A DNA stretch of 64,000 nt from Alphaproteobacteria bacterium (GCA_035509415.1 DATJLQ010000007.1:696-64695); one strand, 5' to 3'. Positions 1-31,097 are shown, counted from the first letter of the stretch. The notes: generated by a model from the sequence alone, not told the origin. Translations and numbers: made by a program.

Positions 1-797
1 GCCTCGCGGGGGCGCGGCTGCAAGTCGAGGCCATGAAGGCGACCTATCGCCAGCGCCGCGCGGACCTCCAATCGGCCGAGGACACGCTTGCCTATCGCCA
101 GCGCGAGTTCGACCGGCAGAAGCGCCTCATCGGCTCGGGTGTGGCGTCCCAGGCGCAATACGACCAGGCGAGCAACGCGCTCGTGGTCGCGCGCCAGCAG
201 GTCGAGGCGGCGCAGCAGCAGATCGCGAACGTGCTCGCGAGCCTGGGCGGCAATCCCGACATCCCGATCGACCAACACCCGTCGGTCGAGGAGGCCCAGG
301 CCCGGCTCGACCGCGCCAAGCTCGATCTCTCCTACACCGTGATCGCAGCCCCCGACGACGGCATCGTGACGCGCGTCGAGAAGCTCCAGGTGGGCGACTA
401 CGTCAACGCCTCGACGCCGGTGTTCGCCCTTCTCTCGACCCACCGCATCTGGGTCGAGGCCAATTTCAAGGAGGTCGAGCTCACCCACATGCGCGCGGGC
501 CAGCCCGCGACCATCGAGGTCGACACTTATCCGGATCACGATTTCACGGGCAAGGTCGAGAGCCTGAGCCCGGGCACGGGGGCGGTGTTCTCGTTGCTGC
601 CGCCGCAGAACGCGTCGGGCAATTGGGTCAAGGTGGTGCAGCGGCTTCCGGTGCGCATTTCGATCGACGATCCGAGTGCGTCCGCCCCGCTTCATGCGGG
701 GTTGAGCGCCTCGGTCGAGGTCGACACGGGCTATCGGCGCTCGCTCGGCGCGCTGTTCGATTGGCTCTTCGGCTCCTCGAGCTCGAGCAAGCCGTGA
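1..797 (+). CDS. HlyD/EmrA-family membrane fusion protein of an efflux pump. C-terminal part only; the 5' end lies outside the window.
   Basis: The translation (..VIAAPDDGIVTRVEKLQVGDYV...PATIEVDTYPDHDFTGKVESLSPGTGAVFSLLPPQNASGNWVKVVQRLPVRISID) is typical of EmrA/HlyD beta-barrel and MP domains. The ORF is open to the window start. Its stop TGA at 795-797 overlaps the GTG start of the next gene. Confidence 0.8.
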   Translation, partial: LAGARLQVEAMKATYRQRRADLQSAEDTLAYRQREFDRQKRLIGSGVASQAQYDQASNALVVARQQVEAAQQQIANVLASLGGNPDIPIDQHPSVEEAQARLDRAKLDLSYTVIAAPDDGIVTRVEKLQVGDYVNASTPVFALLSTHRIWVEANFKEVELTHMRAGQPATIEVDTYPDHDFTGKVESLSPGTGAVFSLLPPQNASGNWVKVVQRLPVRISIDDPSASAPLHAGLSASVEVDTGYRRSLGALFDWLFGSSSSSKP

Positions 798-2299
798 GCG
801 CCAGCGTCTCGATTTCGGTCGCCCGCAAGGCGGCCCGCTTGGCGTTGCCGGCGCTCCTGAGCATGCTTGCGGCTTGCACGGTCGGGCCCAATTTCAAGCC
901 GCCTCAGACCCCGGCGCCCAGGAGCTACGCGGCCGCGGGCGAGCGCGATCTCGAAGCGGGCGGCATTTCCGAGGCGGGCCAACGCGTCTCGCTCGGCAAG
1001 CAGCCCGCGGGCCCGTGGTGGAACGCGTTCAAGTCGGCGGAGCTCGATCGCACGATCGCATTGGCGCTCGCGGGCAACCGCAATCTCGAATCCGCGCGCG
1101 CGAACCTCGCCGCGGCGGAGGAGGCGGTCGCGGCGGCGGCGGGCGGCGAGCTCCCGCAAGCGAGTGCCGCCGCGAGTGCCGCGCGGGAAAAGCTCAACGC
1201 CCAGTCCTTCGGCCTCAAGCAGCCGATCCCGCGCTTCAATCTCTATTCGATCGGGCCGGCCGTGAGCTTCGATCTCGATCTCTTCGGCGGCACGCGGCGC
1301 CTCGTCGAGGAGAAGGCCGCACTCGCCGAGGTCGCGGACGACAGGCTCGCGGCGGCGCGCCTCGCCCTCGCGGGCAACGTCGCGACCCAGGCGTTCGCCG
1401 TCGCGACGGCGCGCGCGGAGATCGCGACCGTCCAGCAAATCCTCAAGGACGACGCGGAAAACCTGAAGCTCGTACGCGGCGCCTTTTCGGCGGGGGCGGT
1501 GACGCAGGTCGACGTGCTGAGTGCGGAGAGCCAGCTCGCCAACGACCGCACGCTTCTCCCGCCGCTCGACCAGCGTCTCGCCGTGGCGCGTCATGCGCTC
1601 TCGATCCTGGTGGGCCAAGCGCCCGCCGATTGGGCGCCGCCCGCGTTCGATTTCGACCGCATCGCGCTGCCGCAGGATTTGCCGCTGAGCCTGCCTTCGG
1701 CGCTCGCCCACGACCGGCCCGACATCCGCGCCGCCGAGGCCGAGCTTCACGCCGCCACCGCCGAGATCGGCGTCGCGACCGCGCGCCTCTATCCCGACGT
1801 GAACCTCACCGCGTCGCTCGGCCAGACCGCGAACGTCTTCGGCCATTTGTTCGACGGCGCGAACACGGTCTGGAGCCTCGCGACCGGCCTCACCGCGCCG
1901 ATCTTCACTGGCGGCACCCTCGAGGCCGAGAAGCGCGGCGCCGAGGACAAACGCGAGGCGGCCTACGCGGCCTATCAGGAAGTGGTGCTTCAGTCGTTCG
2001 GCCAGGTGGCCGACCGGCTCGAGGCGCTCGCCCATGACGGCGTGCTGTTGGAGGAGAACGAGCGCGCGGCCGACATCGCCGCAGCCTCGCTCAAGCTCAC
2101 GCGCGTGAGCTACAACGCGGGCAATACCGGCATCCTCCAGGTGCTCGACGCCGAGCGCGCGTCGAACGAGGCGCGCCTCGGCACGGTGCGTGCGCGCGCC
2201 GAGCTCTATCGCGACACGGCCGAGCTGTTCCTCGCGCTCGGCGGCACCGTGCCCGCGCCTACGACGCCTGCGGCACCCGAGGCATCGGCCAAGCCCTAA
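794..2299 (+). CDS. Efflux transporter outer-membrane lipoprotein, NodT/OprM family.
   Basis: GTG start at 794 overlaps the upstream stop (GTGA). Lipoprotein signal with lipobox (..LLSMLAAC TVGPNFKPP). Two OEP repeats. Typical RND/MFS outer-membrane factor. Confidence 0.85.
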   Translation: MSASVSISVARKAARLALPALLSMLAACTVGPNFKPPQTPAPRSYAAAGERDLEAGGISEAGQRVSLGKQPAGPWWNAFKSAELDRTIALALAGNRNLESARANLAAAEEAVAAAAGGELPQASAAASAAREKLNAQSFGLKQPIPRFNLYSIGPAVSFDLDLFGGTRRLVEEKAALAEVADDRLAAARLALAGNVATQAFAVATARAEIATVQQILKDDAENLKLVRGAFSAGAVTQVDVLSAESQLANDRTLLPPLDQRLAVARHALSILVGQAPADWAPPAFDFDRIALPQDLPLSLPSALAHDRPDIRAAEAELHAATAEIGVATARLYPDVNLTASLGQTANVFGHLFDGANTVWSLATGLTAPIFTGGTLEAEKRGAEDKREAAYAAYQEVVLQSFGQVADRLEALAHDGVLLEENERAADIAAASLKLTRVSYNAGNTGILQVLDAERASNEARLGTVRARAELYRDTAELFLALGGTVPAPTTPAAPEASAKP

Positions 2300-2390
2300 G
2301 CGGCCGGACCCGATCCGGGCCCGAATCGCCAATCCTTTGAGGGATTTGGACCAAGGCGCCCCTTGACCCGCGACGCCTTGCGGGTTTAAC

Positions 2391-2405
2391 GTTCATGCCG
2401 TGAAC
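2391..2405. promoter_or_regulatory. Inverted repeat GTTCA-N5-TGAAC upstream of cysD, a candidate regulator binding site. It is followed by a second TGAAC direct repeat.
   Basis: GTTCATGCCGTGAAC is seen directly. The same half-sites recur at 9666-9680 and 9910-9924. Confidence 0.45.
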
Positions 2406-2438
2406 ATGAACGCCGTCCGGGCGGCGGAGAAGGCTTTT

Positions 2439-2462
2439 CGCCCGGATTGCGGTAGCATGGGC
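2439..2462 (+). promoter_or_regulatory. Conserved 24-nt element CGCCCGGATTGCGGTAGCATGGGC in the cysD leader or promoter.
   Basis: Matches 10039-10062 at 22 of 24 positions (CACCCGGACTGCGGTAGCATGGGC). Located 35 nt before the cysD ATG. Confidence 0.5.
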
Positions 2463-2497
2463 CGCGCGCCGCATCCACGCCGAACCACGGTCTCCGG

Positions 2498-3295
2498 ATG
2501 ATCTCCCCGCTCGACGGTCTCGAGGCAAGAACCATCCATATTCTGCGCGAGGCGCAGGCGCGCGTGGCGCCGTTGGTGCTTCTCTGGTCGATGGGAAAGG
2601 ACAGCACGGCGCTGTTGTGGATGGCGCGCAAGGCGTTCTTCGGGCGCGTGCCGTTTCCCGTGGTCCAGCTCGATACCGGCATGGAGCTCGACGAGGTCTA
2701 CGCGTTCCGCGACCGCATCGCGCGCGATTGGCAGCTCGACCTCGCGATCGAGCTTTGCCCGCCCGAAGGATCGGTCGCGGCGGATCTGCCGCCCGCCGCG
2801 CGTGCCGCGGCGCGCAAGACCGAGGGACTGAAGAACCTGATCGCGCGGCGCGGGCTCCACGGCATCCTGGTCGGCATCCGGCGCGACGAGCAGGCGACGC
2901 GCGCGAAGGAGCGCATGTTCAGCCCGCGCGGCGCCGGCGGCGAATGGCACTTGCGCGAGCAGCCGGCCGAGCTGTGGGGCCAATACTTGACCGAGGTTCC
3001 GCCGGGCGGCCATGTGCGCATCCATCCACTGCTTCCCTGGCGCGAGATCGACGTGTGGCGCTACACGAAGCGGGAGGCGATCCCTTTCGTTCCGCTCTAT
3101 CTCGCGCGCGGCGGCAAGCGCTACCGCTCTCTCGGCGAGAAGAACATCACGGCCCCCGTCGCCTCGAGCGCCGCGTCGATCGACGCCATCATCGCCGAGC
3201 TCGAGACGACCGAGATCGCCGAGCGCGCCGGACGCGCCATGGATCGCGAGACCGAGGACGCGTTCGAGCGCCTGCGCGCCGCGGGGTACATGTGA
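2498..3295 (+). CDS. cysD: Sulfate adenylyltransferase subunit 2 (CysD/NodP-like).
   Basis: PAPS-reductase-fold ATP-sulfurylase small subunit. Motifs LLWSMGKDSTALLWMA and GIRRDE match. Translationally coupled to the next gene (GTGA). Confidence 0.9.
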   Translation: MISPLDGLEARTIHILREAQARVAPLVLLWSMGKDSTALLWMARKAFFGRVPFPVVQLDTGMELDEVYAFRDRIARDWQLDLAIELCPPEGSVAADLPPAARAAARKTEGLKNLIARRGLHGILVGIRRDEQATRAKERMFSPRGAGGEWHLREQPAELWGQYLTEVPPGGHVRIHPLLPWREIDVWRYTKREAIPFVPLYLARGGKRYRSLGEKNITAPVASSAASIDAIIAELETTEIAERAGRAMDRETEDAFERLRAAGYM

Positions 3296-5202
3296 CGGCG
3301 GCCGAAGAGCCGGCGCCGCGCGAGCGCCTCGCGATCGCCGTGGTCGGCCATGTCGATCACGGCAAATCGACGCTCATCGCGCGGCTCCTCTACGAGGCGG
3401 GGCTGGTGCCCGAAGCGAAACGCGCCGAGCTCGAGGCCGCGAGCCGCCGGCGCGGCACTTCGCTCGAATGGTCCTATCTCCTCGATGCGTTCCAGGCCGA
3501 GCGCGACCAGGCGGTCACCATCGATGCGACCCACGCGGCGCTCGCGACGGCGCGGCGCGACTACCTTCTGATCGACGCGCCCGGCCACAAGGAATTCCTC
3601 AAGAACATGCTCGTGGGGGCTGCGCAGGCGGACGCCGCCATCCTCGTGGTCGACGCGACCGAGGGGGTCGCCGAGCAGACGCGCCGCCACGCCTATCTGC
3701 TTTCGCTGCTCGGCATCGCCGACCTCGTGGTCGCGATCAACAAGATGGACGCGGTCGGCTACGCGGCCGCGCGTTTCGAGGCGCTAAGCGCCGAGATCCG
3801 GCGTCATCTCGAAGCGCTCGGCCTCGCGCCGCCCGCGATCGTGCCGGTCGCGGCGCGCGAGGGGGCCAATCTTGTTAGCCCGTCGAGCGAGATGCCCTGG
3901 CATCGCGGGCCGACGCTGCTCGCTTCCCTCGACCTTCTCGCGGCGCCGAGCGCGCGCGCCGATCTGCCGTTGCGATTTCCGGTCCAGGACGTCTACCGCA
4001 TCGACGGGAAGCGCATCATCGTGGGGCGCATCGAGTCAGGGACGCTCGCGCTCGGCGACCGGCTTCTTTTCGCGCCCGGCAATCACGGCGCGCGCGTGAA
4101 ATCGATCGAGACCTGGCCGGAGCGGCCCGAGTCCGCGGCGCCCGTGCGCGCCGAGGCGGGCCAATCGATCGGCCTCACCCTCGACGAGCCGATCTTCGTC
4201 GAGCGCGGCGACGTCGCGAGCCATGAGACGCGGCCACCCATGCTTACCCACGTGTTTCGCGCGCGGCTCCTCTGGCTCGCGGAGAAGCCGCTCGCCGTCG
4301 GCGCGGTCTACCGCCTGCGGCTCGGCACGCGCGTGGCGCAAGTCACGGTCCAGGCGATCGAGCGCCTGATCGACACGGGCAGCCTCGCGCCGCGCAAGGC
4401 CGACAAGATCGGCCGCAACGAGGTCGGCGAGGCGATCCTGCGTAGTCCGAGCCTGCTCGCCCTCGACGCGCGCAGCGCCGATCCCGCCCTCGGCCGCTTC
4501 GTCCTGGTCGAGGGCTACGAGGTGGTGGGTGCCGGAATCGTCGACATGGAGGGTTTCCCCGACGAGCGCCAAGCGTTCGCGGTCCACGGCGCCGGCCGGT
4601 TCGAGACCGATCATCTCCTCGCCCGCGACGCGCGCGCCCGGCGCAACGGCCATCAGGGGGCGGTCATCTGGTTCACCGGCCTCTCGGGTGCGGGCAAGTC
4701 GACCCTCGCGATGGAGGTCGAGCGGCGCCTGTTCCTCGCCGGCTATCAGGTCTATGTGCTCGACGGCGACAATGTGCGGCGCGGCCTCAACGCCGATCTC
4801 GGCTTCGCGCCCGATGACCGGGTCGAGAACATCCGGCGCGTGGGCGAGGTCGCGATGCTGTTCGCGGACGCGGGCTTCATCGTCATCACCGCCTTCATCT
4901 CGCCCTACATCTCGGACCGCGCCCGCGCGCGCGCCGCGGCGGCCCAGGGCGCCTTCCACGAGGTCTACATCAAGGCCGATCTCGAGCTTTGCGAGCGGCG
5001 CGACCCGAAGGGCCTCTATAAGCGCGCGCGCGCGGGCGAGATCCCGGACTTCACCGGCGTCTCAGCACCCTACGAGCCGCCGCCGGCGCCCGAGCTCACG
5101 GTCGACACGGGTGCTTGCTCGATCGAGGAATCGGTCGCGCGGGTCCTCGCCTATATCGAGCGGCACGTGGCGCTGAAGCCGCCCGACGCGGGACGCGGAT
5201 GA
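3292..5202 (+). CDS. cysNC: Bifunctional sulfate adenylyltransferase subunit 1 / adenylylsulfate kinase (CysN-CysC fusion, NodQ-like).
   Basis: GTG start at 3292 overlaps the cysD stop. N-terminal GTPase (AIAVVGHVDHGKSTL, DAPGH, NKMD). C-terminal APS kinase P-loop (VIWFTGLSGAGKSTLA). The upstream ORF extension to 2617 is a frame artefact. Confidence 0.9.
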   Translation: MTAAEEPAPRERLAIAVVGHVDHGKSTLIARLLYEAGLVPEAKRAELEAASRRRGTSLEWSYLLDAFQAERDQAVTIDATHAALATARRDYLLIDAPGHKEFLKNMLVGAAQADAAILVVDATEGVAEQTRRHAYLLSLLGIADLVVAINKMDAVGYAAARFEALSAEIRRHLEALGLAPPAIVPVAAREGANLVSPSSEMPWHRGPTLLASLDLLAAPSARADLPLRFPVQDVYRIDGKRIIVGRIESGTLALGDRLLFAPGNHGARVKSIETWPERPESAAPVRAEAGQSIGLTLDEPIFVERGDVASHETRPPMLTHVFRARLLWLAEKPLAVGAVYRLRLGTRVAQVTVQAIERLIDTGSLAPRKADKIGRNEVGEAILRSPSLLALDARSADPALGRFVLVEGYEVVGAGIVDMEGFPDERQAFAVHGAGRFETDHLLARDARARRNGHQGAVIWFTGLSGAGKSTLAMEVERRLFLAGYQVYVLDGDNVRRGLNADLGFAPDDRVENIRRVGEVAMLFADAGFIVITAFISPYISDRARARAAAAQGAFHEVYIKADLELCERRDPKGLYKRARAGEIPDFTGVSAPYEPPPAPELTVDTGACSIEESVARVLAYIERHVALKPPDAGRG

Positions 5203-5222
5203 GCGCCGACTCGGGGGATGCG

Positions 5223-6212
5223 TTACGCCGCGCGCGGCTTGGACGCGATCATCATGAAGCCGCTCACGGCGAGGTCCGCGTCGGCGACCGGCGCGAACTC
5301 GCGCGCGAGGTGCGGGCGCATCGCGCGCACGGTCTCGAGCGCCGTCGCACGCAAGCCGGGATCGATTTCGTCCCACGGTATGGGTGCTCCGAGCCCGTCC
5401 TCGCGGCCCGCGAGGTTGGTCACGAGGAAGCGGCAGTCGATTTTCGCCGCCGCGGCCCAGGCCTTGTAGCGATGGAGCAGCACGCGATTGGGCCGGCCGC
5501 TGTTCGCCACCATGCGCCGGAAGATGGCGCGCGGCACGGTGAGGAAGGTGAGCGGATGACGCCCGGCGAACATGCCATGGTCGCGCAGGTCGATCTGATG
5601 CACGAGGACGCCGCCGGGCACGAGCGCCCGCATCATGCCGTCGAGGCCGCGGATCGGATCGAGGAGATGCTCCATCACCGCGGTCGAGAGGATCGCCGAA
5701 TAGGTGGGCGGGAGCGACGCGAAATAATCCTCGGCCGCGACGCCGTAGACGTATTTGACGCCGCGGATGTTGCGCTCGGCGGGCGCGCCGTCGAACAGGC
5801 GCGCGAGATCGTGCTTCTCGGCGAGCGCGCGGTAGATCGGCGTCTGCACTGTTTCGTCGCGCTCCGAGCGGAAGCGGTCGATCGCGTGCACCTCGGCGGC
5901 GCCGCGCGCGAGCAGCAGCAACCCCACGCCCAGATTGTCGCCCGGGCCGATCTCGGCGACGGTGCCCTCGAAACGCGCGCGCCCGACGGCCGCCGCGTAG
6001 CTCTCGGCCACATGCTCGATGTAGCGCACCGACTCTTCGACCGGGATCGTCGCGTGGGTGGTGCCCGATTCGGTGCCGACGCGGCCGAGCGCGAGGCGCA
6101 AGCCGTCGAGCGCGTCGAGCACGAGATAGCCCACGCAGGTGAGGGGCACGCTCGCGCGCACCAGCTTCTTGAGCGCCGCGCGCGGCGAGGCGGGGGTGTC
6201 GGTCGGGCTCAT
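5223..6212 (-). CDS. Class I SAM-dependent methyltransferase.
   Basis: Rossmann motif I (VAEIGPGDNLGVGLLLLARGA) and an acidic post-I residue. 329 aa. Convergent with cysNC. Confidence 0.7.
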   Translation of the reverse strand: MSPTDTPASPRAALKKLVRASVPLTCVGYLVLDALDGLRLALGRVGTESGTTHATIPVEESVRYIEHVAESYAAAVGRARFEGTVAEIGPGDNLGVGLLLLARGAAEVHAIDRFRSERDETVQTPIYRALAEKHDLARLFDGAPAERNIRGVKYVYGVAAEDYFASLPPTYSAILSTAVMEHLLDPIRGLDGMMRALVPGGVLVHQIDLRDHGMFAGRHPLTFLTVPRAIFRRMVANSGRPNRVLLHRYKAWAAAAKIDCRFLVTNLAGREDGLGAPIPWDEIDPGLRATALETVRAMRPHLAREFAPVADADLAVSGFMMIASKPRAA

Positions 6213-6316
6213 GGGCTCCGAAGGGGCTCAGTCGTGGCAGCCGGGCGAGACGGTAGCGCAATCGAGGCGCAGGGAGAAGGCGCCTCGGACGCCGGCACGC
6301 GAGCGGCATACGCGCC

Positions 6317-7441
6317 ATGAAGATCGTCATCCTCTGCCGCTCGCTCGATTATGGCGGCGCCGAGCGCCAGGCGATCCTTCTTGCGCGCGGCCTCGCGGCG
6401 CGCGGCCACGCGGTGGCGTTGGCGCTCTTCTATCGCGGCGGACCGCTCGAGGCCGGGCTCGCGGGGACCGACCTGCGCGTTCACGATCTCGCGAAGCGCG
6501 GGCGCTGGGACGCGCTCGGATTCTTCGTGCGTCTCGTGCGCTTCCTCCGCCGCGAGCGGCCCGACATCGTCTATGGATTCCTTCCCGTGCCGAACCTCGT
6601 GGCGGCGCTCGCGAAGGCTTTCGTGCGCACACCGCGACTCGTGTTCGGCGTGCGCGCGGCGGGCATGGATCTCGCGCATTACGATTGGCTCGCGCGGCTT
6701 TCCTACCGGCTCGAGGCGCAGCTGTCGTCGCGCGCCGATCTTGTCATCGCCAATTCTGAAGAGGGTGCGCGCGACATCGCGCGACGCGGCTTCCGCGCGC
6801 GCAAGGTCGCGGTGGTCGCGAACGGCATCGACACCGAGAATTTCGCGCGCGATCCCGCGGCCCGCTTGGCGCTGCGGCGCGACTGGGGCGTTCCGGAGGG
6901 GGCGTTCCTCGTCGGCCATGCGGGGCGCCTCGATCCGATGAAGGGGCACGATCTGTTCCTTGAGGCGGCGGCAAATCTCGCGCGCGACGATGCGGGCTTG
7001 CGTTTCGTTTCGGTCGGCGCGGGCGACCGCACCTATCTCGCCCGGCTGAAGCTGCGCGCAACTTCGCTCGAGCTCGAGGGACGCCTCATTTGGGCGGGCG
7101 GCCGCGCCGACATGGCGCGTTGCTATGCGGCGCTCGATCTCTTCTGCTCCTCCTCGCGCTACGGCGAGGGATTCCCAAACGTCGTCGCGGAAGCCATGGC
7201 CTGCGGCGTTCCCTGCGTCGCGACCGATCTGGGGGCCGCGCGCGCGATCGTGGGCGAGCTCGGCCTCGTCGTCCCACCCGGAGACGCGAGCGCGCTGGCC
7301 AAGGCCCTCGCAACCATGATCGGGCGCGTCAAGTCGGAAGGTCCGAGCCTCGCGGCATCCACGCGCCGCTCGATCGAGACGCGGTTCGGCGTCGTGCGGC
7401 TTGCGGCCGAGACCGAGGCGCTGCTCCGGGACCTCGCCTGA
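6317..7441 (+). CDS. Glycosyltransferase family 4 (GT-B fold).
   Basis: N-terminal MKIVILCRSLDYGGAERQ and a C-terminal EGFPNVVAEAMACGVPCVATD (EX7E-like) motif typical of GT4. Confidence 0.8.
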   Translation: MKIVILCRSLDYGGAERQAILLARGLAARGHAVALALFYRGGPLEAGLAGTDLRVHDLAKRGRWDALGFFVRLVRFLRRERPDIVYGFLPVPNLVAALAKAFVRTPRLVFGVRAAGMDLAHYDWLARLSYRLEAQLSSRADLVIANSEEGARDIARRGFRARKVAVVANGIDTENFARDPAARLALRRDWGVPEGAFLVGHAGRLDPMKGHDLFLEAAANLARDDAGLRFVSVGAGDRTYLARLKLRATSLELEGRLIWAGGRADMARCYAALDLFCSSSRYGEGFPNVVAEAMACGVPCVATDLGAARAIVGELGLVVPPGDASALAKALATMIGRVKSEGPSLAASTRRSIETRFGVVRLAAETEALLRDLA

Positions 7442-7448
7442 AGGCGCA

Positions 7449-8618
7449 TCAGGTATCGCGCGCGTCGACCAGCTCGCGATAAAGCGCGTCGTAGGCGCCA
7501 ACGCAGGCCGCGAGCGAGAATTCCGCCTCGACGCGCGCGCGGCCCGCTTGGCCCATACGCGCGGCCGACCCGCGATCGCCGGCGAGCGATGCGATCGCAG
7601 CCCCAAGCTTCGCCGGATCGCGCGGCGGCACGAGAAGGCCCGTCGCGCCGTCGGCGACCGCCTCGGGATTGCCGCCCACATTGGTCGCGATCACCGGCAG
7701 CGCCGCCGCCATGGCCTCGAGGATCGCGTTGGAGAAGCCTTCCTCGTGCGACACCAAAAGCGCGAGGTCGGCCGCGACGTAAAGCGGCGCCGTGTCGCTC
7801 ACGAGCCCGAGCCAGCGCAGATTCTCCGCGATGCCGAGGCGGGCCGCGCGCGCCGCGAGCGAGGCACCCGCGCCATCGTCGCGGCCCGCGCATAGGAGCA
7901 GCCACGGCTTGGGCAAACGGCCCTCGATCGCGCCGAGGGCATCGAGCAGATCGGCATGGCCCTTGTAGGGAATGATGTTGGCCACCAGCAGCATGACGAA
8001 GGCGTCGGCGGGAACGCCGAGCGCGCGCCGCGCCTCGGCCCGCTGCGCCGCGGTCGCGACGGGCGCCGTCTCGATGCCGTTATAGATGAGGCGCAGCTTC
8101 TCCGCCGGCACGCCCTCCGCCGCGAGCTCGCCCATCACGGCGCGGCTGTTGCCACTGATGCGCGCCATGAAGGGATGGAGGAGACGCTCGAGCCGGGCGA
8201 GGAGCGGGCGCTCTGCCTGATAGGCGTTGAGGCTGCGCCGGCTCATGACGAGGTTGCGGCGCCCGGTCGCGAGTGCGGCGATCCCACCCACCACGTAGTT
8301 CGCCGGCAGGAAGAAATGCACGATCGCCGGCCGGCGGCGCATCATCTCGATCATCGAGGCGCCCGTCACCGCGAGAAGGCGCAGGCCGCGCGCGAGGATC
8401 GACGCGCGTCCGCTGCGCGCTCGGGCGCCGAAGCGCGACACGCGCACCGGAACGCCCCGGGCCTCGAGCGCGTCGGCCATGCGGCCGCGCTCGACCAGGC
8501 AGTAGATCTCGGGCTGCCAGACGCGCCGGTCGAGGGACGAGGCGATCTGCACGAGATGGCGTTGGGTCCCGCCGATCTTGAGCGAATCGATGACGTAAAG
8601 GATGCGGCGCGGCGTCAT
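7449..8618 (-). CDS. Glycosyltransferase family 4.
   Basis: N-terminal [17 protein letters not shown] and C-terminal [27 protein letters not shown] match GT4. Coupled (ATGA) to the upstream gene on the minus strand. Confidence 0.8.
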
Positions 8619-9565
8619 GGCACGGCAAAGCCCGCGATGGAATCATGAGCATAATGCGCCTCGGCTGAGCGCCATAGCACCTCGAAGCCGCGCCTTCCCT
8701 TGCGATAGATGCCGCCCTTGACCGGCGAGGACGCGCCGTCGTTGCTGCCGGTCGCGAGCAGGCCGCCCGCGCCGAGCCCCTCGAACAAGCGGCCCACGAC
8801 GGACGCCAGCGCCGCGCGGTCGAAATAGGATTCGTTGAGCACGTTCATGGCGCGGACGAGATCGGCCGGGCGCGGGAGCGGCGAGGGGTCGCGGAGATCG
8901 TGGGCGATCAGGTGGAAACGCGCATCGCGCGCGGCGAGCGCCGAGGCGCGCGGCGAGGCAAGGGTGAGCGTCTCGGCCTCGATCCTGTGGGCGCGCTCCG
9001 CCTCGAGGAGGCGCGGGAGGCGGCAGCGCTCGACGTATTGCAGGACGGCGTAATTCACCGGATAGAGCCGGAAATTCTCGCGCTCGCGCGCGACGACGTG
9101 GAACACGAAGGGCCGCGCGCCGAGCTCGAGCACGCGGCCGCCGCGGTCGAGCACCGCATGGACGCGGCCCGCGCGCAGCACGCGGAGCTCGGTGTCGTAG
9201 TCGGACGCGTAATAGTCGAGTTGGGCGTAGCGGGGTGCGAGCTTCTCGAACAGCTCGGCCGCGGTGCGCGCGTCGCTGACGCCGGCATCGTGGACCGTAA
9301 GCGGTGCGTCGGCCGCGAAGCGCTCGGCGACGAATGCCAACACACGCGCGTCGAAATCGTCGAAGCGGTGCCGTTGGGTGCGCTTATAGGCGCCGCGCGC
9401 GTCGGCGAAATGCTCGAGGATGAGCTCGGCCGCGCGCTCCGGGTCGGCGGCTTGGGCGATCTTGGCGTAGAGTGCGACCGAAATGCGCCGCCTTCCGCCG
9501 AACAGGGTGCGGAGCCGTCTCGGGTCGGCAAGCGCCTCGATGTCCTGCACTCCGGTTTTCAGCAT
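8615..9565 (-). CDS. Hypothetical protein, possibly a SAM-dependent methyltransferase. First gene of a minus-strand pair with the GT4.
   Basis: 316 aa. Weak motif-I-like LTVHDAGVSDARTAAEL followed by YYASDYD. No confident family assignment. Confidence 0.5.
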   Translation of the reverse strand: MLKTGVQDIEALADPRRLRTLFGGRRRISVALYAKIAQAADPERAAELILEHFADARGAYKRTQRHRFDDFDARVLAFVAERFAADAPLTVHDAGVSDARTAAELFEKLAPRYAQLDYYASDYDTELRVLRAGRVHAVLDRGGRVLELGARPFVFHVVARERENFRLYPVNYAVLQYVERCRLPRLLEAERAHRIEAETLTLASPRASALAARDARFHLIAHDLRDPSPLPRPADLVRAMNVLNESYFDRAALASVVGRLFEGLGAGGLLATGSNDGASSPVKGGIYRKGRRGFEVLWRSAEAHYAHDSIAGFAVP

Positions 9566-9665
9566 CGCGGCCTATGGGCGCTGGCAAGCGCGGGCGTCGG
9601 GTCGGACCGATGGTCCGCGGCGCGCGAGCCTCCGGGGAACGCGGCCGCACGCTCGAATCGCGCTT

Positions 9666-9680
9666 GTTCGTATCGTGAAC
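9666..9680. promoter_or_regulatory. Inverted repeat GTTCG-N5-TGAAC in the divergent intergenic region. The extended palindrome CTTGTTC-N7-GAACAAG spans 9663-9683.
   Basis: Seen directly. Lies about 100 bp upstream of the minus-strand gene start at 9565. Confidence 0.45.
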
Positions 9681-9909
9681 AAGCAGGGCCGGCAATAATA
9701 AAGCGCCGCCCGGGCGGGGGCACTTCCGCGCTCAAGATCGCTTCGGCGTTAGGCTTTCTCGCCGATCGGGCCGGATTGGCGCGCTTTCGGGTCCCCCGAG
9801 CGAGGCCGGCCTTTGGCTGTAAGATCCCTTGGCTCCACGCTTTTTCCGGCCGAAGGCGCCCGGCTTGGGTACGCGGACCCCTTGACGGCAGGGACGCCCA
9901 AGTGTAATC

Positions 9910-9924
9910 GTTCACGCCATGAAC
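9910..9924. promoter_or_regulatory. Inverted repeat GTTCA-N5-TGAAC upstream of the nonulosonic-acid operon.
   Basis: GTTCACGCCATGAAC, about 150 bp upstream of the ATG at 10077. Confidence 0.45.
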
Positions 9925-10038
9925 AAGGGCGCCGGAGCGGGCGCCCTCGCCCGAGAGGCGCGCGACGTTGGAGTGTTGCACGCCGTCCGATCTCGGCACC
10001 GCCACGCGTCCGTCCATGTTGGTCCGGTGAAGGCACTT

Positions 10039-10062
10039 CACCCGGACTGCGGTAGCATGGGC
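10039..10062 (+). promoter_or_regulatory. Second copy of the conserved 24-nt element, immediately upstream of the nonulosonic-acid operon.
   Basis: Located 15 nt before the ATG at 10077. Near-identical to 2439-2462. Confidence 0.5.
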
Positions 10063-10076
10063 GTCTTCTCGATTTC

Positions 10077-10739
10077 ATGAGCGAAACCTTCCTTCCCATC
10101 ATCGTCATCGGCGCGGGCGGCCACGGACGCGTGGTCGCGGACGCGCTTGCGGCCGCGGGCCGCCGCGTGCTCGGCTTTTGCGACGCCGATCCGGCGCTCG
10201 GCGGCCGCACCGTCGCCGGCCGGCCCGTGCTCGGCGGCGACGACGCGGTCGAGCGACACACGCCGGCGCACGTCGAGCTCGCCATGGGGATCGGCGCCGC
10301 GGGTCGCAAGCCTGCCGCCGCCATGGCCGAGCGCGCTGCGCTCATCGGACGTTGGCGCGCGCGCGGCTACGGGTTCGCGTCGGTGATCCATCCCTCGGCG
10401 ACGCTCGCGCGGGATTGCGCGACGGAAACGGGCCTGCAGGCCATGGCGCGCGTCGTGGTCCAAACCGGAAGCCGCCTCGGCGCCGACTGCATCCTCAACA
10501 CCTCCGCCTCGATCGATCACGATTGCATCGTGGGTGCCAACGCGCAGATCGGGCCGGGTGCCGTGCTCGGCGGTGCGGTGACCGTGGGGGAGGGCGCCTA
10601 TATCGGCATCGGTGCCACGATCCTGCAGGGCGTTACGATCGGCGCGGGCGCCGAGATCGCGGCGGGTGCCGTCGTGCTCGCGGACGTGGCCGCCGGGGCG
10701 CGCGTCATGGGAGTTCCGGCGCGCGAGGTCGCGCGATGA
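10077..10739 (+). CDS. Sugar O-/N-acetyltransferase, NeuD/PglD/LegH family (left-handed beta-helix).
   Basis: N-terminal Rossmann-like IVIGAGGHGRVVADAL followed by hexapeptide repeats (IGPGAVLGGAVTVGEGAYIGIGATILQGVTIGAGAEIAAGAVV). Confidence 0.85.
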   Translation: MSETFLPIIVIGAGGHGRVVADALAAAGRRVLGFCDADPALGGRTVAGRPVLGGDDAVERHTPAHVELAMGIGAAGRKPAAAMAERAALIGRWRARGYGFASVIHPSATLARDCATETGLQAMARVVVQTGSRLGADCILNTSASIDHDCIVGANAQIGPGAVLGGAVTVGEGAYIGIGATILQGVTIGAGAEIAAGAVVLADVAAGARVMGVPAREVAR

Positions 10740-11791
10740 AATCCTGGCGCAAATCGCTGGTCGCACCGGAGCGCACCCTGCGCCAGGCGATGGAGCTCCT
10801 CGAGGCGGAGGGGCTCCAGGTGGTGCTCGTGGCCGACGCCGAGGGCCGCCTCAAGGGTCTCATCACCGACGGCGACATCCGGCGCGGACTCCTCAACGGG
10901 TTGGCGCTCGAGGCGCCGGTGAGTGCGGTGATGAATCCGAGCCCGGTGGTCGGGCGCGTGAGCGACAGCCGCGAGCATTTGACGGCGCTCTTGCGCACCC
11001 ACGAGAAGCGCATCCACCATCTGCCGCTGCTCGACGAGGCCGGCCGCATCGTCGAGCTCTTCACGGTCGACGACATCGTCGCGGTACCCTTGCGCTCGTC
11101 GCTCGTGGTGCTGCTCGCGGGCGGGCGCGGCACGCGGCTCCGCCCACTCACCGAGGATTGCCCCAAGCCCATGCTGCGCGTCGGCGGCCGCCCGATCCTC
11201 GAGACCATCATCGGGCGCTTCCAGCTCCACGGGCTCCATCGCTTCCGCATTGCGATCAACTATCTGGGTGCGATGATCGAGGATTACTTCGGCGACGGCG
11301 CGCGGTGGGGGGCGGAGATCGAGTATTTGCGCGAATCCCAGCCGCTCGGCACCGCGGGGCCGGTCAAGCTTCTCGCACCCCGGCCGGACGAGCCGTTCTT
11401 CGTCATGAACGGCGATCTCCTCACCACGGTCAATTTCGACCATCTCATGAGGTTCCACCAGGAGCACAAGGCGCCGCTCACCATGTGCGTGAGCGAGCAT
11501 GCCTATTCCGTGCCCTACGGTGTCGCCCAGACCGCGGGCGTGTACCTCCGCGAGCTGGTCGAGAAGCCGCGCTACCGGAGCCTGGTCAATGCCGGTATCT
11601 ACGTCGCCGACCCGGACGTGCTCGATCTCATCCCGCCGGACGCCCGCTTCGACATGACCGAGCTGATCGACGCACTGCTCGCCGCGCGCCGCCCGCCGGC
11701 CGTGTTCCCGCTGCACGAATACTGGGTCGATGTGGGCGAGCGCGAGGACTACAATCGCGCGATCCAGGAATACGGCGACATTTTCGAGTAG
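10736..11791 (+). CDS. CBS-domain sugar-phosphate nucleotidyltransferase (PtmE-like).
   Basis: ATGA overlap with the upstream stop. N-terminal CBS pair. Nucleotidyltransferase motif LLAGGRGTRLRPLTEDCPKPML. Confidence 0.8.
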   Translation: MKSWRKSLVAPERTLRQAMELLEAEGLQVVLVADAEGRLKGLITDGDIRRGLLNGLALEAPVSAVMNPSPVVGRVSDSREHLTALLRTHEKRIHHLPLLDEAGRIVELFTVDDIVAVPLRSSLVVLLAGGRGTRLRPLTEDCPKPMLRVGGRPILETIIGRFQLHGLHRFRIAINYLGAMIEDYFGDGARWGAEIEYLRESQPLGTAGPVKLLAPRPDEPFFVMNGDLLTTVNFDHLMRFHQEHKAPLTMCVSEHAYSVPYGVAQTAGVYLRELVEKPRYRSLVNAGIYVADPDVLDLIPPDARFDMTELIDALLAARRPPAVFPLHEYWVDVGEREDYNRAIQEYGDIFE

Positions 11792-11819
11792 ATCGCGAAC
11801 CCGCCGCGGAGTGACGCGC

Positions 11820-12989
11820 ATGATCGACCAATTCTTCTTCCAGCTCAACAACCGGCTCCATTACGGCCTCGGCTGGAGCCGCAAGCTCGGCGCCTTCCTC
11901 CAGGAGAAGGGCTACCGCGCACCCGCCCTTCTGGTCGATGCCGGGGTCGCCGAGCGCAATCCCTATTATCGCGAGATCGCGGGCCTCGTCGCGGCGGCGG
12001 GGTTCGCCGCCCCTGAGATCCTGCTGCGCGCGACCGAGGAGCCGTCCTACGATTATCTCGACGAGGTCGCGGCGCGGGTGCGCGCGTTGCCCGCGCTCGA
12101 CGTCATCGTCGCGATCGGCGGCGGCAGCGCCCTCGACACGGCCAAGGCGGTCGCGGCGTTGCGCACCAATCCGGGCTCCGGTATCGAGTATCGCGGCTTC
12201 GACAAGATCGGCATCGCGCCGGTCGACACGATCTGCATTCCGACCACCGCCGGCACCGGGAGCGAGGTCACGATCAACGCGGTCTTCACCGACAAGCGCG
12301 AGATGCGCAAGCTCGGCATCAACGGCCGTCACATGCACGCGACCTGGGCCGTGCTCGACGCCGAATGGACCGCGAGCTGCCCCAAGAGCGTCGCCGTCTC
12401 GTCGGGCGTCGACGCGTTGGTGCACACGCTCGAAAGCTTCACGACGACCAATTCGAACCCGCTCGTGCGCGCCTTCAACCGCGAGGCGTTCCGGCTTCTC
12501 TACGAGAATCTGCCCGCCTTGGTCGAGGAGCCTGGGAACGCGGAGAAGCGCCAGCACCTGCTGCTCGCGGCCTATCTCGCGGCGGCTGGCCTGTTCAATT
12601 CGGGCTCGGGCATCGCGGGGGCACTCTCATACCCGATCGGGGTCCATTTCAAGGTGCCCCATGGGATCGGCGGCGGCATCTTCGCGGCCTCGATCGTCGC
12701 GTACAATGTCGAGCGCGGCTACCACGACTATGCCGAACTCCTCGACGTGGTCGAGCCCCATCCCGGCTGGAGCGCCGAGCGGAAGGCGCGCCGCTTCGTC
12801 GACGCGCTGCAGGCGCTGGTCGACCGGCTCGGCGTGCCGCGCCATCTCGACCAATGGGGCATCTGCCGCGCGAACCTCAAGGAGGTCGCGACCCTCATGC
12901 TGCCGCTCCAGGCGGCGTTCAACCAGAACCCGGTCGCCTTCTCCGCCGAGCGCGACGTGCCCGCGATCCTCGCGAAGCACGTCGCCTGA
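11820..12989 (+). CDS. Iron-containing alcohol dehydrogenase family protein.
   Basis: Fe-ADH fold signatures (GGGSALDTAKAVA, His-rich metal site HGIGGGIFAASI). In-frame ATG at 11820 within the longer ORF. Confidence 0.75.
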   Translation: MIDQFFFQLNNRLHYGLGWSRKLGAFLQEKGYRAPALLVDAGVAERNPYYREIAGLVAAAGFAAPEILLRATEEPSYDYLDEVAARVRALPALDVIVAIGGGSALDTAKAVAALRTNPGSGIEYRGFDKIGIAPVDTICIPTTAGTGSEVTINAVFTDKREMRKLGINGRHMHATWAVLDAEWTASCPKSVAVSSGVDALVHTLESFTTTNSNPLVRAFNREAFRLLYENLPALVEEPGNAEKRQHLLLAAYLAAAGLFNSGSGIAGALSYPIGVHFKVPHGIGGGIFAASIVAYNVERGYHDYAELLDVVEPHPGWSAERKARRFVDALQALVDRLGVPRHLDQWGICRANLKEVATLMLPLQAAFNQNPVAFSAERDVPAILAKHVA

Positions 12990-13045
12990 GCGGCACCGCC
13001 GGCATTCCCGCAACCGTCTATTCATCGAGCGCACGAGGAAAAACC

Positions 13046-14236
13046 ATGGCCGGCTATGAAGTGTTCGGCGAGGAAGAGCGCCGCGCGATCAACGAGATTT
13101 TCGACCTCAACGGCGGCATCCTGTTCGCCCACGGCTTCGACGCCCTCCGGAAGGGCGTCTACCGCGTGCGCGAGTTCGAGCGCGCCTTCGCGACGCGTCT
13201 CGGCGCCAAGCACGCCCAGGCGGTTTCGTCCGGGACCGCCGCGATCAAGGTGGCGCTTCAGGCGCTCGGCGTCGGGCGCGGCGACGAGGTGATCACCCAG
13301 TCCTTCACCTTCGTCGCAACCGTCGAGGCGATCCTCGAGACCGGCGCCAAGCCGGTGATCGTCGACATCGACGACACGCTGAACATGGACCCGCGCGCGT
13401 TCGAGGCGGCGATCACGCCCAAGACCAAGGCGGTGGTGCCGGTGCACATGATGGGCGAGGCGGCGGCGCTCGACGAAATCGTCGCCATCGCGCGGCGCCA
13501 CAAGATCCTGGTCATGGAGGACACCGCCCAGGCGCTCGGGGCGCGCTACAAGGGCCGCATGCTCGGCACCATCGGCGACATCGCCGCCTTCAGCACCGAC
13601 GCGGGCAAGACCATCAACACGGGCGAGGGCGGGCTCGTGGTCACCAACGAGGATGCGCTCTACGAGCGCGCGCGCGGTCTCCACGATCACGGCCACGAAT
13701 ACAGCAAGACCCTCGGGCGCGGTCAGGAGGGGGCGATCTGCGTCGGCTTCAACTTCCGCATGACCGAGCTCCAGGGTGCGGTCGGCCTGGCGCAGCTCGC
13801 GAAGCTCGACATGATCGTCGGGCGCCAGCGCGAGAACAAGGCGAAGCTCATGGCGCGCCTCAGGAAGCTGCCGCTCAAGTTCCGCCGCAGCCTGGATGGC
13901 GCGGGCGATCTCTCCGACACGATCGTGTTCTTCCTCGCGAGCTCCGCCAAGGCGAACGCTTTCGTCGCCGAGATGGCGAAGGAGGGGCTGGGGACGAAGA
14001 ACCTGCCCGACGCGGTGCGTTGGCATTTCGCGCGCCATTGGCAGCACATGTTCGAGGCGACCGGCTATTACCGCGACAGCTACCGGAGCGAATGGCGCGC
14101 CTCGGCCGATCTCCTCGAGCGCGCGGTCGCGATCCCGGTCATGGTCAAGATGGACGACGCGCGCATCGACACCGTGGCGTCCAAGCTCGAATCGATCACC
14201 GAGCGCGTCGTCTCGTCGAACGAGCCCGCCGCTTGA
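13046..14236 (+). CDS. DegT/DnrJ/EryC1/StrS-family PLP-dependent aminotransferase or dehydratase.
   Basis: Family-typical sequence (TGEGGLVVTNEDALYERARGLHDHG, FNFRMTELQGAVGLAQLAKLD). The upstream ORF extension is a frame artefact. Confidence 0.8.
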   Translation: MAGYEVFGEEERRAINEIFDLNGGILFAHGFDALRKGVYRVREFERAFATRLGAKHAQAVSSGTAAIKVALQALGVGRGDEVITQSFTFVATVEAILETGAKPVIVDIDDTLNMDPRAFEAAITPKTKAVVPVHMMGEAAALDEIVAIARRHKILVMEDTAQALGARYKGRMLGTIGDIAAFSTDAGKTINTGEGGLVVTNEDALYERARGLHDHGHEYSKTLGRGQEGAICVGFNFRMTELQGAVGLAQLAKLDMIVGRQRENKAKLMARLRKLPLKFRRSLDGAGDLSDTIVFFLASSAKANAFVAEMAKEGLGTKNLPDAVRWHFARHWQHMFEATGYYRDSYRSEWRASADLLERAVAIPVMVKMDDARIDTVASKLESITERVVSSNEPAA

Positions 14237-14955
14237 CGCTTCTCGCCTTCATTCCCGCGCGCGGCGGCTCAAAAGGAATCCCGCGCAAGAACATGGCGCT
14301 TCTCGCGGGCCGGCCGCTGCTCGGCTATACGCTCGCCGCGGCCAAGGCGTCGCGCGCGGTCTCCGAGATTTTCGTCTCGACCGACGATGACGAGATCGCG
14401 GCATTCTCCGAGGCCGAAGGCGTCGCGGTTCCCTATCGCCGCCCGAAGGCGCTCGCGACCGACACGGCACCCATCATCGACGCGGTCGTCGACGCGCTCG
14501 ATTGGCGCATGCGCGCGGGGCTGAGCGAGCCGGCTGCGATCGCGCTCCTGCAGCCGACCTCGCCCTTTCGTGCCGCCGCCGATATCGACCGCGCGGCTGC
14601 GGAATTCGAGGCGTCGGGCCGCGAGAGCCTGGTCGCGGTGCACGAAATGGCCGAGCATCCTTACGAATGCGTGCGCGCGAGCGGGGAGGGCTGGAGCCCG
14701 CTCGCGACGCCGCCCACCCCCGCGACGCGACGCCAGGATTACGGCCCCGAGCGCTTTCTTTTCATCAACGGCGCCCTCTATATCGCGACGCCCAGATTCC
14801 TCAGGCGGCGCCACGCCTTCGTCGTTCCCGGCGAGACGGCGCTCTTCGAGATGGACCCGGTGCGGGGCGCCGACATAGACGATCTCGACGATTGGCATCG
14901 CGCCGAGGCGCTGCTCGCCTCGCCCGCGCTCAAGGGGCGCTTGGCGCTCGCCTAG
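14233..14955 (+). CDS. Acylneuraminate cytidylyltransferase-family protein (CMP-nonulosonic acid synthetase, NeuA/LegF-like).
   Basis: TTG start overlaps the upstream stop (TTGA). N-terminal LAFIPARGGSKGIPRKN signature of the CMP-NeuAc/KDO synthetase family. Confidence 0.75.
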   Translation: MTLLAFIPARGGSKGIPRKNMALLAGRPLLGYTLAAAKASRAVSEIFVSTDDDEIAAFSEAEGVAVPYRRPKALATDTAPIIDAVVDALDWRMRAGLSEPAAIALLQPTSPFRAAADIDRAAAEFEASGRESLVAVHEMAEHPYECVRASGEGWSPLATPPTPATRRQDYGPERFLFINGALYIATPRFLRRRHAFVVPGETALFEMDPVRGADIDDLDDWHRAEALLASPALKGRLALA

Positions 14956-14985
14956 AACGACACGCTCGCTTGGAAGGACGACGAG

Positions 14986-20863: not shown

Positions 20864-20940
20864 CGCGCGCGAGCCCCCGAGGACGCATGCCGCGCCCGTC
20901 ATATCGCACTCTCCGTGCGCCGCGCCAGGGGAATTCGGCA

Positions 20941-31024: not shown

Positions 31025-31097
31025 CGCGCGCCCCGAAATCCGAAGAATTCCAGCGATCATTGCGCGCCCGAGCGCGCGCCCCCAGAGGAGAACGACC

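Follow-up and report, generated by a model that had tools for sequence, protein, structure and literature searches.

RfaH of Escherichia coli is a model for the sequence-specific loading of an elongation factor. The reference sequence of its 12-nt ops element is GGCGGTAGCGTG (PMC11880322). In cryo-electron microscopy structures, the non-template strand of ops folds into a small hairpin through the pairs G2:C9, C3:G8 and G4:A7, G5 and T6 make up the loop that RfaH reads, and polymerase pauses at U11; the start codon of RfaH-dependent operons lies within 100 nt of ops (PMC11001881), and such operons often have no ribosome-binding sites (PMC13015549). Wang et al. (2020) found that 18% of rfaH genes are alphaproteobacterial and that the genes of RfaH cluster CL4 neighbour a helix-turn-helix regulator, the mode of recruitment being known only for the E. 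coli protein (PMC7593976). The present analysis concerns a 64,000-nt stretch of DNA from an alphaproteobacterium (GCA_035509415.1, DATJLQ010000007.1:696-64695; the window), in which an ops-like element, preceded by a predicted hairpin and an operator-like palindrome, stands in the leaders of two operons: cysD-cysNC, for synthesis of 3'-phosphoadenosine 5'-phosphosulfate (PAPS), and a nine-gene operon for a nonulosonic acid. We consider it probable that a conserved alphaproteobacterial regulon for surface glycans includes both operons, each of which has its two cis-elements; such a regulon would combine operator-controlled initiation with processive antitermination of the ops type.

A sequence-only reading of the window had noted that the two leaders share a 24-nt element, unlikely to be a chance match in 64 kb, and had suggested that the two operons are under common control. 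Direct reading of both leaders bears out the coordinates and the identity of the 24-mer: the copies are CGCCCGGATTGCGGTAGCATGGGC at 2439-2462 and CACCCGGACTGCGGTAGCATGGGC at 10039-10062, identical at 22 of 24 positions. These are the only two matches in the window when up to three mismatches are allowed, and no match appears in any of 100 dinucleotide shuffles of the window. An nhmmer profile built from 146 related elements (see below) also recovers just these two sites, with E values of 2e-9 and 2.6e-5, all other hits having E values of 12 or more. The likeness extends beyond the 24-mer, since each leader carries CCCTTGAC at the same distance before the palindrome, exactly 23 nt (2360-2367; 9879-9886), and the 5' part of the 24-mer is in each case the 3' arm of a hairpin. 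Common control thus gains support from dedicated elements that the two leaders have in common and that lie where a promoter and a leader are expected. The leader features are the following.

2360-2367, plus strand: CCCTTGAC, read directly, a -35-like box of the cysD leader with a putative promoter role, 23 nt upstream of the palindrome
2385-2390, plus strand: TTTAAC, a weak candidate -10 box assigned from its sequence only, 16 nt after TTGACC
2391-2405, no strand assigned: operator-like palindrome GTTCATGCCGTGAAC, an exact match, over the predicted cysD transcription start
2416-2446, plus strand: leader hairpin A (TCCGGGCG...CGCCCGGA), predicted by RNAfold, its 3' arm being the first 8 nt of the 24-mer
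2448-2459, plus strand: ops-like 12-mer A, TGCGGTAGCATG, 10 of 12 positions as in E. coli ops, ending 38 nt upstream of the cysD ATG
9666-9680, no strand assigned: variant palindrome GTTCGTATCGTGAAC, one mismatch, 100 nt upstream of a divergent minus-strand operon, of uncertain function
9879-9886, plus strand: CCCTTGAC, read directly, the -35-like box of the nonulosonic-acid leader, again 23 nt before the palindrome
9903-9909, plus strand: TGTAATC, a candidate -10 region, likewise proposed from the sequence alone
9910-9924, no strand assigned: operator-like palindrome GTTCACGCCATGAAC, an exact match
10023-10046, plus strand: leader hairpin B (TCCGGTGAAG gca CTTCACCCGGA, one bulged C), predicted by RNAfold
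10048-10059, plus strand: ops-like 12-mer B, TGCGGTAGCATG, identical to copy A, ending 17 nt upstream of the ATG at 10077

A 10-mer, ACGCCGTCCG, is also present in both leaders (2410-2419 and 9980-9989). It overlaps the 5' arm of hairpin A and stands 34 nt upstream of hairpin B in the other leader, from which hairpin it is absent; by a rough estimate it is probably not significant alone, and it was set aside as a shared element.

The 12-mer that follows each hairpin agrees with E. coli ops at positions 2-9, 11 and 12 (10 of 12), position 1 being T. Both copies have the required 12-nt core GGCGGTAGnnTG on the coding strand, and all of the bases that could form the non-template hairpin, with those of the G5-T6 loop, in which T6 is essential, are present in each. 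The element also has the placement of an ops signal, lying in the 5' leader, in the orientation of the operon and with a start codon within about 100 nt.

Related loci were collected by pattern scans. A scan of 185,579 species genomes with CCGGANTGCGGTAGCATGGG gave 32 loci, about 31 of them alphaproteobacterial and each in a different genome, from Bradyrhizobium, Afipia, Xanthobacteraceae, Stellaceae, Rhodospirillales, Pelagibius and Thalassospiraceae. A metagenome scan with TCRCCCGGANTGCGGTAGNNTG, which leaves ops positions 9 and 10 free, gave at least 120 matches, and the pooled sample amounts to at least 151 loci, nearly all alphaproteobacterial. Only chance-level matches were found in the plasmid collection; the one in an Azospirillum plasmid reads GCGGTGGCAT, which is not an ops core. 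The distance from the element to the predicted start codon is below about 90 nt in most related loci examined, and a sugar-nucleotide or glycan gene comes first downstream in each of 28 loci (sugar epimerase/dehydratase, GFO/IDH/MocA oxidoreductase, GT4 glycosyltransferase, cytidylyltransferase and UDP-GlcNAc 2-epimerase).

The element is closely tied to the gene of a NusG paralog. In 105 of the 124 loci with enough upstream DNA, a NusG-like open reading frame (ORF) ends no more than 250 nt upstream of the element, and the distance is 44-90 nt in the genome-scan loci. A winged-helix gene is found upstream in 76 of 90 loci, directly preceding the NusG paralog and often overlapping it by 4 nt. 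The NusG-like proteins match Pfam NusG with E values of about 1e-20, but their best NCBIfam model is RfaH (E about 1e-32, 111-114 bits) and their best match in the PDB is E. coli RfaH, ahead of NusG; close homologues are labelled "transcriptional antiterminator RfaH" by NCBI and JGI. The winged-helix protein, of about 215-240 aa, has an N-terminal HTH_24 domain (Pfam E about 1e-9) and a C-terminal Rossmann-like domain. It scores 56-64 bits against the MarR_EPS model TIGR04176, below the cutoff of 88, and a search of the PDB gave no informative relative. The 24-mer, tied as it is to an RfaH-like NusG paralog, is read here as a leader signal; the comparison points to a transcribed hairpin followed by a putative ops-like pause and recruitment signal, and not to a promoter element.

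Because the search patterns fixed the core TGCGGTAG, a second sample was drawn by way of the protein. Four independent loci, reached only through homologues of the NusG paralog, all have the winged-helix gene with a palindrome at its promoter, and in all four the paralog gene is followed after 75-95 nt by the hairpin plus TGCGGTAGC(A/G)TG. The variant hairpin arm of one of the four, CACCTGGA, lies outside the reach of the patterns.

The hairpin is itself a conserved part of the leader. An equivalent structure is predicted in 92% of 146 unique related elements, compared with 47% when the upstream sequence is shuffled. The alphaproteobacterial loci have a hairpin of the form CCGGGTGAC-loop-GTCACCCGG followed by (C/G)TGCGGTAGCATGGG; hairpin B has the family consensus as its 3' arm (TTCACCCGGA), and hairpin A has a compensated G-C pair (TCGC/GCG, against TCAC/GTGA in the consensus). 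These comparisons used per-sequence folding and the nhmmer profile; a MAFFT alignment of the hairpins was set aside because right-justification put the 5' arms out of register. Loci of the Bradyrhizobium type (e.g. L015, L033 and L159-L163) have in addition, immediately before the main hairpin, another conserved one (GCTCC-loop-GGAGC), and a terminator-like stem after the stop codon of the NusG paralog; neither feature is found in the window leaders.

A hairpin with a single-stranded tail could instead function at the RNA level, either as a riboswitch or as a leader RNA that the NusG paralog binds, comparable to the leader RNA hairpin used by LoaP. Such an element would account for the conservation of the hairpin and for its 5'-arm variants (TCCGG, TCTGG, TTCGG and TTTGG), whose G-C to G-U changes retain RNA pairing. 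The 3' arm TCACCCGGA is near-invariant, including a TCAC that was not part of the search pattern in the first scan, which suggests sequence-specific recognition beyond ops, and neither R73 nor K10 of E. coli RfaH is retained in the associated proteins. However, the single-stranded part is identical to the E. coli ops DNA hairpin at all of positions 2-9, and C9, the partner of G2 in that hairpin, is C in all 117 non-duplicate copies among the metagenome matches listed. In addition, a single short hairpin has no complexity resembling a ligand pocket, and Rfam gave no family, either for the whole window at the gathering score or for the two leaders at E <= 10, where only chance-level matches appeared. 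We therefore regard an RNA-level element as unlikely.

Position 10, which was also free in the metagenome pattern, is G in 52, A in 38, T in 26 and C in only one of the same 117 copies, so that the NTG at positions 10-12 is nearly always a usable start codon (116 of 117). This raises the alternative that the conserved block is mainly a translation start, which opens a leader peptide or the first gene and is coupled to it through ATGA overlaps. In the window, the ATG within the ops-like element opens ORFs of 14 and 7 codons (2457-2501; 10057-10080), both of which end in a TGA that overlaps the start codon of cysD or of the pglD-like first gene. Reading of the upstream sequence revealed no Shine-Dalgarno sequence for either of these genes. 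Similar ORFs appear in other loci, several related loci have the NTG in the reading frame of the first gene, and the first-gene frames are mildly skewed (49/30/29, chi-square 7.06). The coupling idea failed its frame controls, however: an ATGA or TGATG overlap occurs in 23 of 49 cases against 23 of 59 in control frames (Fisher p = 0.44), and looser criteria score alike in all three frames, so that only the near-absence of C at position 10 and the mild frame skew remain. A translation start would also leave the neighbouring NusG paralog and the identity to ops unexplained, and as an account of the whole block it is quite improbable. A combination of the two ideas, in which the NTG is a working start codon and the RfaH-like factor loads at the half-made codon and hands the ribosome to it, is unlikely. 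If it were true, the recruitment site would also be the place where transcription and translation become coupled, whether the NTG opened the first gene or a short leader ORF ending on the ATG of that gene, and both the scarcity of C at position 10 and the missing Shine-Dalgarno sequences would be explained.

The second shared element, the palindrome, was described in the sequence-only reading as three copies of GTTCA-N5-TGAAC. Two of these are exact (2391-2405 and 9910-9924), but the copy at 9666-9680 begins with GTTCG and so has one mismatch. Within the window the count is of borderline significance: three sites are found with up to one mismatch, the shuffle mean is 0.63, and 3 of 100 shuffles reach three. 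The comparative data are much stronger, with 140 exact palindromes in 847 kb of related loci where 0.45 are expected (about 300-fold), 120 of them in the start region or promoter of a winged-helix regulator gene. The one-arm GTTCG variant found at 9666 is also enriched in that DNA (37 found, 1.4 expected), and 32 of the 37 are at regulator promoters, as a second or third site. On this comparative evidence, the palindrome motif is real.

The usual form of the regulator promoter is cTTGAC|GTTCAnnnnnTGAAC|gcgCTA, in which the palindrome fills the spacer between the -35 and -10 boxes; one or two extra palindromes often lie 20-27 nt away. Locus L059 has the same TTGAC-N23-GTTCA spacing as the window leaders. 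In two metagenome loci (L089 and L156), the regulator/NusG-paralog operon is divergent from a leader with an ops-like element, and three or four tandem copies of GTTCA-N5-TGAAC occupy the shared intergenic region: the parts are the same and the wiring is different. A terminator-like site in the window, a GC-rich hairpin followed by GCGCTTTATTATT on the minus strand at 9707-9722, lies between the two operator-like palindromes of the divergent region, with no evident gene to terminate. The similarity of the palindrome hairpin to a queA RNA (E 3.3) is at chance level and was dismissed.

These counts bear on two simpler explanations. A repeat dispersed between genes, or a fortuitous similarity without specific function, would be in keeping with the borderline palindrome count in the window, and a genome-wide repeat had been named at the outset as the finding that would undo the proposal. 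However, the 24-mer occurs in no shuffle, has two copies in 64 kb, and was found as one exact copy per genome in the genome scan; its orientation and gene context are constant across the 151 loci, and the palindrome is strongly enriched. A repeat or a coincidence is therefore hardly credible. The other explanation is that the 24-mer is a promoter-proximal site of a single transcription factor that also reads the palindrome. The two elements do occur together in both window leaders, and this layout recurs in six other loci, where the palindrome precedes the hairpin-ops element by no more than 200 nt and no NusG gene intervenes. In most loci, however, they flank the regulator and NusG genes: in 22 of 31 genome loci the palindrome precedes the ops-like element by 1.2-1.4 kb and so falls at the winged-helix gene's promoter. 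The 24-mer is also asymmetric, always comes shortly before the first gene on its coding strand, and lies 57-138 nt downstream of the candidate promoter, making a single DNA-binding factor very improbable. The evidence thus departs from the original suggestion of one regulator or one shared leader RNA and argues for two separate factors, the winged-helix regulator and the RfaH-like NusG paralog.

The preferred reading, with operator-controlled initiation followed by ops-type antitermination, can be laid out as a two-layer model. Initiation would take place at a promoter of the form CCCTTGAC-N16/17-TAAyC, directly followed by GTTCA-N5-TGAAC. Since the palindrome follows the weak -10-like box, it should overlap the transcription start, and because of this position the dimeric, MarR_EPS-like winged-helix regulator that most likely binds there would most likely repress the operon until released by a ligand. 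In the elongation layer, polymerase would transcribe the hairpin, with its 3' arm TC(A/G)CCCGGA, and 1 nt later meet TGCGGTAGCATG. By analogy with E. coli ops, it would pause at the T of the ATG (position 11), where the non-template GCGGTAGC could fold into a small DNA hairpin that exposes G5 and T6 and allows the RfaH-like NusG paralog to load. That would leave 12 nt between the base of the RNA hairpin and the paused 3' end, as in a hairpin-stabilised pause. Polymerase so modified would presumably resist pausing and Rho termination across cysD-cysNC and across the 9.6-kb nonulosonic-acid operon. It may also help to bring in ribosomes, given that both first genes lack a Shine-Dalgarno sequence, a property that fits RfaH-dependent operons.

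Several observations weigh against this model. A scan for consensus promoters and terminators called no promoter in either window leader, and the promoter assignment consequently rests on the shared CCCTTGAC-N23 geometry. Neither the NusG paralog nor the winged-helix regulator is encoded in the 64-kb window; their presence in the organism is assumed, and both leaders would have to be served in trans. The NusG-like proteins fall below the RfaH equivalog cutoff (TIGR01955; 111-114 against 144.5 bits), and of the residues that contact ops in the PDB structure of RfaH, H20 and T72 are kept and four are changed (R16 to K, T68 to S, K10 to Q and R73 to Y). The ops core in the 151 loci was fixed by the search patterns, and its conservation independently of them is seen only in the two window copies and the four protein-anchored loci, all four Bradyrhizobium-like. 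The near-invariant 3' arm suggests an extra determinant, possibly at the RNA level, that has no counterpart in E. coli ops. The sequence identities, the conserved gene neighbourhood and the predicted hairpin are results of the comparison; promoter use, the protein at the palindrome, pausing, recruitment, antitermination and the direction of regulation are proposals built on them. Finally, the Rfam model of the E. coli element (RF01707) gave no match in the window leaders at E <= 10, nor in 8 related loci at E <= 0.1. As a positive control, an E. coli 39-mer that is present in all 5,426 complete E. coli genomes (between galF and rfbB in the example examined) scored 61.1 bits on RF01707, for which the cutoff is 35. 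The layout in RF01707 is a stem of 5 bp, a 1-nt spacer and GGCGGUAGCGUG. Because the stem and flanks differ and RF01707 misses it, the alphaproteobacterial element is a variant of ops/JUMPstart and not a member of the Rfam family.

The two operons lie in a region rich in glycan genes, as follows.

623-2299, plus strand: outer-membrane efflux protein
2498-3295, plus strand: cysD, sulfate adenylyltransferase subunit 2 of the PAPS_reduct family (Pfam PF01507, E 2.9e-29)
3292-5202, plus strand: fused cysN-cysC, GTPase and adenosine 5'-phosphosulfate (APS) kinase (Pfam GTP_EFTU, E 6e-45; APS_kinase, E 1.9e-64)
5223-6212, minus strand: methyltransferase-like gene
6317-7441, plus strand: GT4 glycosyltransferase
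7449-8618, minus strand: GT4 glycosyltransferase of the divergent operon
8615-9565, minus strand: 316-aa ORF of the divergent operon, with no significant Pfam domain
10077-19637, plus strand: nine-gene, 9.6-kb nonulosonic-acid (legionaminic-type) operon, from Pfam scans
19649-20941, minus strand: convergent gene after the nonulosonic-acid operon, from codon-position GC

The GTG start codon of cysN-cysC overlaps the stop codon of cysD. The nonulosonic-acid operon encodes, in order, a PglD-like acetyltransferase, a CBS-nucleotidyltransferase, an Fe-ADH-like protein, a DegT aminotransferase, a cytidylyltransferase, an epimerase/dehydratase, a second DegT protein, a UDP-GlcNAc 2-epimerase and NeuB. 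A single 27-kb operon from 10077 to 37613 was ruled out, because codon-position GC shows that the minus-strand gene at 19649-20941 is real; the unit headed by the ops-like element is thus 10077-19637. Further plus-strand glycan genes occupy about 20.8-37.6 kb and include a second NeuB, more cytidylyltransferases and a pyruvyl transferase; at the head of this unit, the nhmmer profile found no ops-like element, and there is no palindrome. With two NeuB paralogs (18564-19637 and 30894-31973) and four CTP_transf_3 cytidylyltransferase-like genes (at about 14.0-15.0, 25.3-26.1 and 33.6-34.4 kb), the cluster suggests two separate nonulosonic- or ulosonic-acid pathways. The organism is uncultured, judging from identical proteins on soil-metagenome contigs.

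The presence of a PAPS operon in this putative regulon recalls two unrelated loci in which PAPS-synthesis genes are recurrent neighbours of the module, even though the type of sulfurylase differs. In L031, a Thalassospiraceae metagenome-assembled genome, one ORF combines a pyruvate-kinase-like barrel with PUA_2 and ATP-sulfurylase domains, and an APS kinase gene comes next (3155-5943); in L119, the gene of a pyruvate-kinase-barrel protein stands before an APS kinase gene alone (3094-4722). Both groups lie directly upstream of the regulator/NusG-paralog pair, and each is preceded by GTTCA-N5-TGAAC. This recurrence supports co-regulation, and the resulting prediction for the organism is that PAPS synthesis and nonulosonic-acid glycan synthesis would be switched on together.

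The sequence-only reading had also taken the shared control to fit a sulfated surface glycan. This part did not find support: no Pfam sulfotransferase domain is present in the window genes scanned (0.6-40 kb), where several ORFs have no Pfam match. Three ORFs with a good coding signal lack a significant Pfam domain, namely 8615-9565 on the minus strand and 29150-31024 and 36312-37613 on the plus strand, the last of which has a faint polysialyltransferase match (E 0.006). Any of these, or the gene at 19649-20941, could be a missing glycan-modifying enzyme, including a sulfotransferase. Sulfation of the nonulosonic-acid glycan thus becomes testable and remains unproven.

The literature on RfaH, ops and JUMPstart in rhizobia, Bradyrhizobium and Alphaproteobacteria yielded no description of such an element or operator, within a coverage that is incomplete and leaves an earlier description possible. 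Among the known systems, the closest is E. coli ops/JUMPstart with RfaH (RF01707). In both cases a 12-nt signal, identical at 10 positions, lies on the coding strand in the leaders of polysaccharide operons; a stem-loop ends 1 nt before the 12-mer, which places the base of the stem 12 nt from U11; the first start codon follows within 100 nt; the first genes have no Shine-Dalgarno sequence; and an RfaH-type NusG paralog is associated, here in the related loci. The alphaproteobacterial element differs in having T instead of G at position 1, a variable position 10 (G, A or T), and a stem of 8-10 bp instead of 5, with the near-invariant 3' arm. Its NusG paralog falls short of the RfaH equivalog and lacks R73 and K10, and in contrast to E. 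coli rfaH, its gene usually stands immediately before one target and has a dedicated winged-helix regulator as its partner.

LoaP, UpxY and TaA are likewise specialised NusG paralogs that are found beside long polysaccharide or secondary-metabolite operons and act through a leader element. The NCBIfam models of UpxY and LoaP do match the proteins described here, more weakly than RfaH; the leader matches ops DNA, and the targets in the window would be served in trans. The winged-helix regulator resembles the Rex-type redox repressors in joining a winged helix to a Rossmann domain and in having a palindromic operator that would overlap the promoter. The likeness is one of architecture, as the protein has no Rex Pfam domains and no sequence match in the PDB. 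The Rex operator sequence differs from GTTCA-N5-TGAAC.

The pairing of an RfaH-like gene with a regulator gene also recalls cluster CL4, for which the paper gives no recruitment site or operator (PMC7593976); the proteins considered here are candidate members of that cluster. The present element would be a concrete and widely conserved candidate recruitment site for alphaproteobacterial RfaH-like proteins, the E. coli-type signal having been known only in enterobacteria (PMC7593976), and the palindrome would be a candidate operator for the regulator encoded beside them. If so, the regulons of a large and unstudied branch of RfaH could be read from sequence. The comparison also suggests that the non-template hairpin core of ops has been conserved across proteobacterial classes while its flanks differ.

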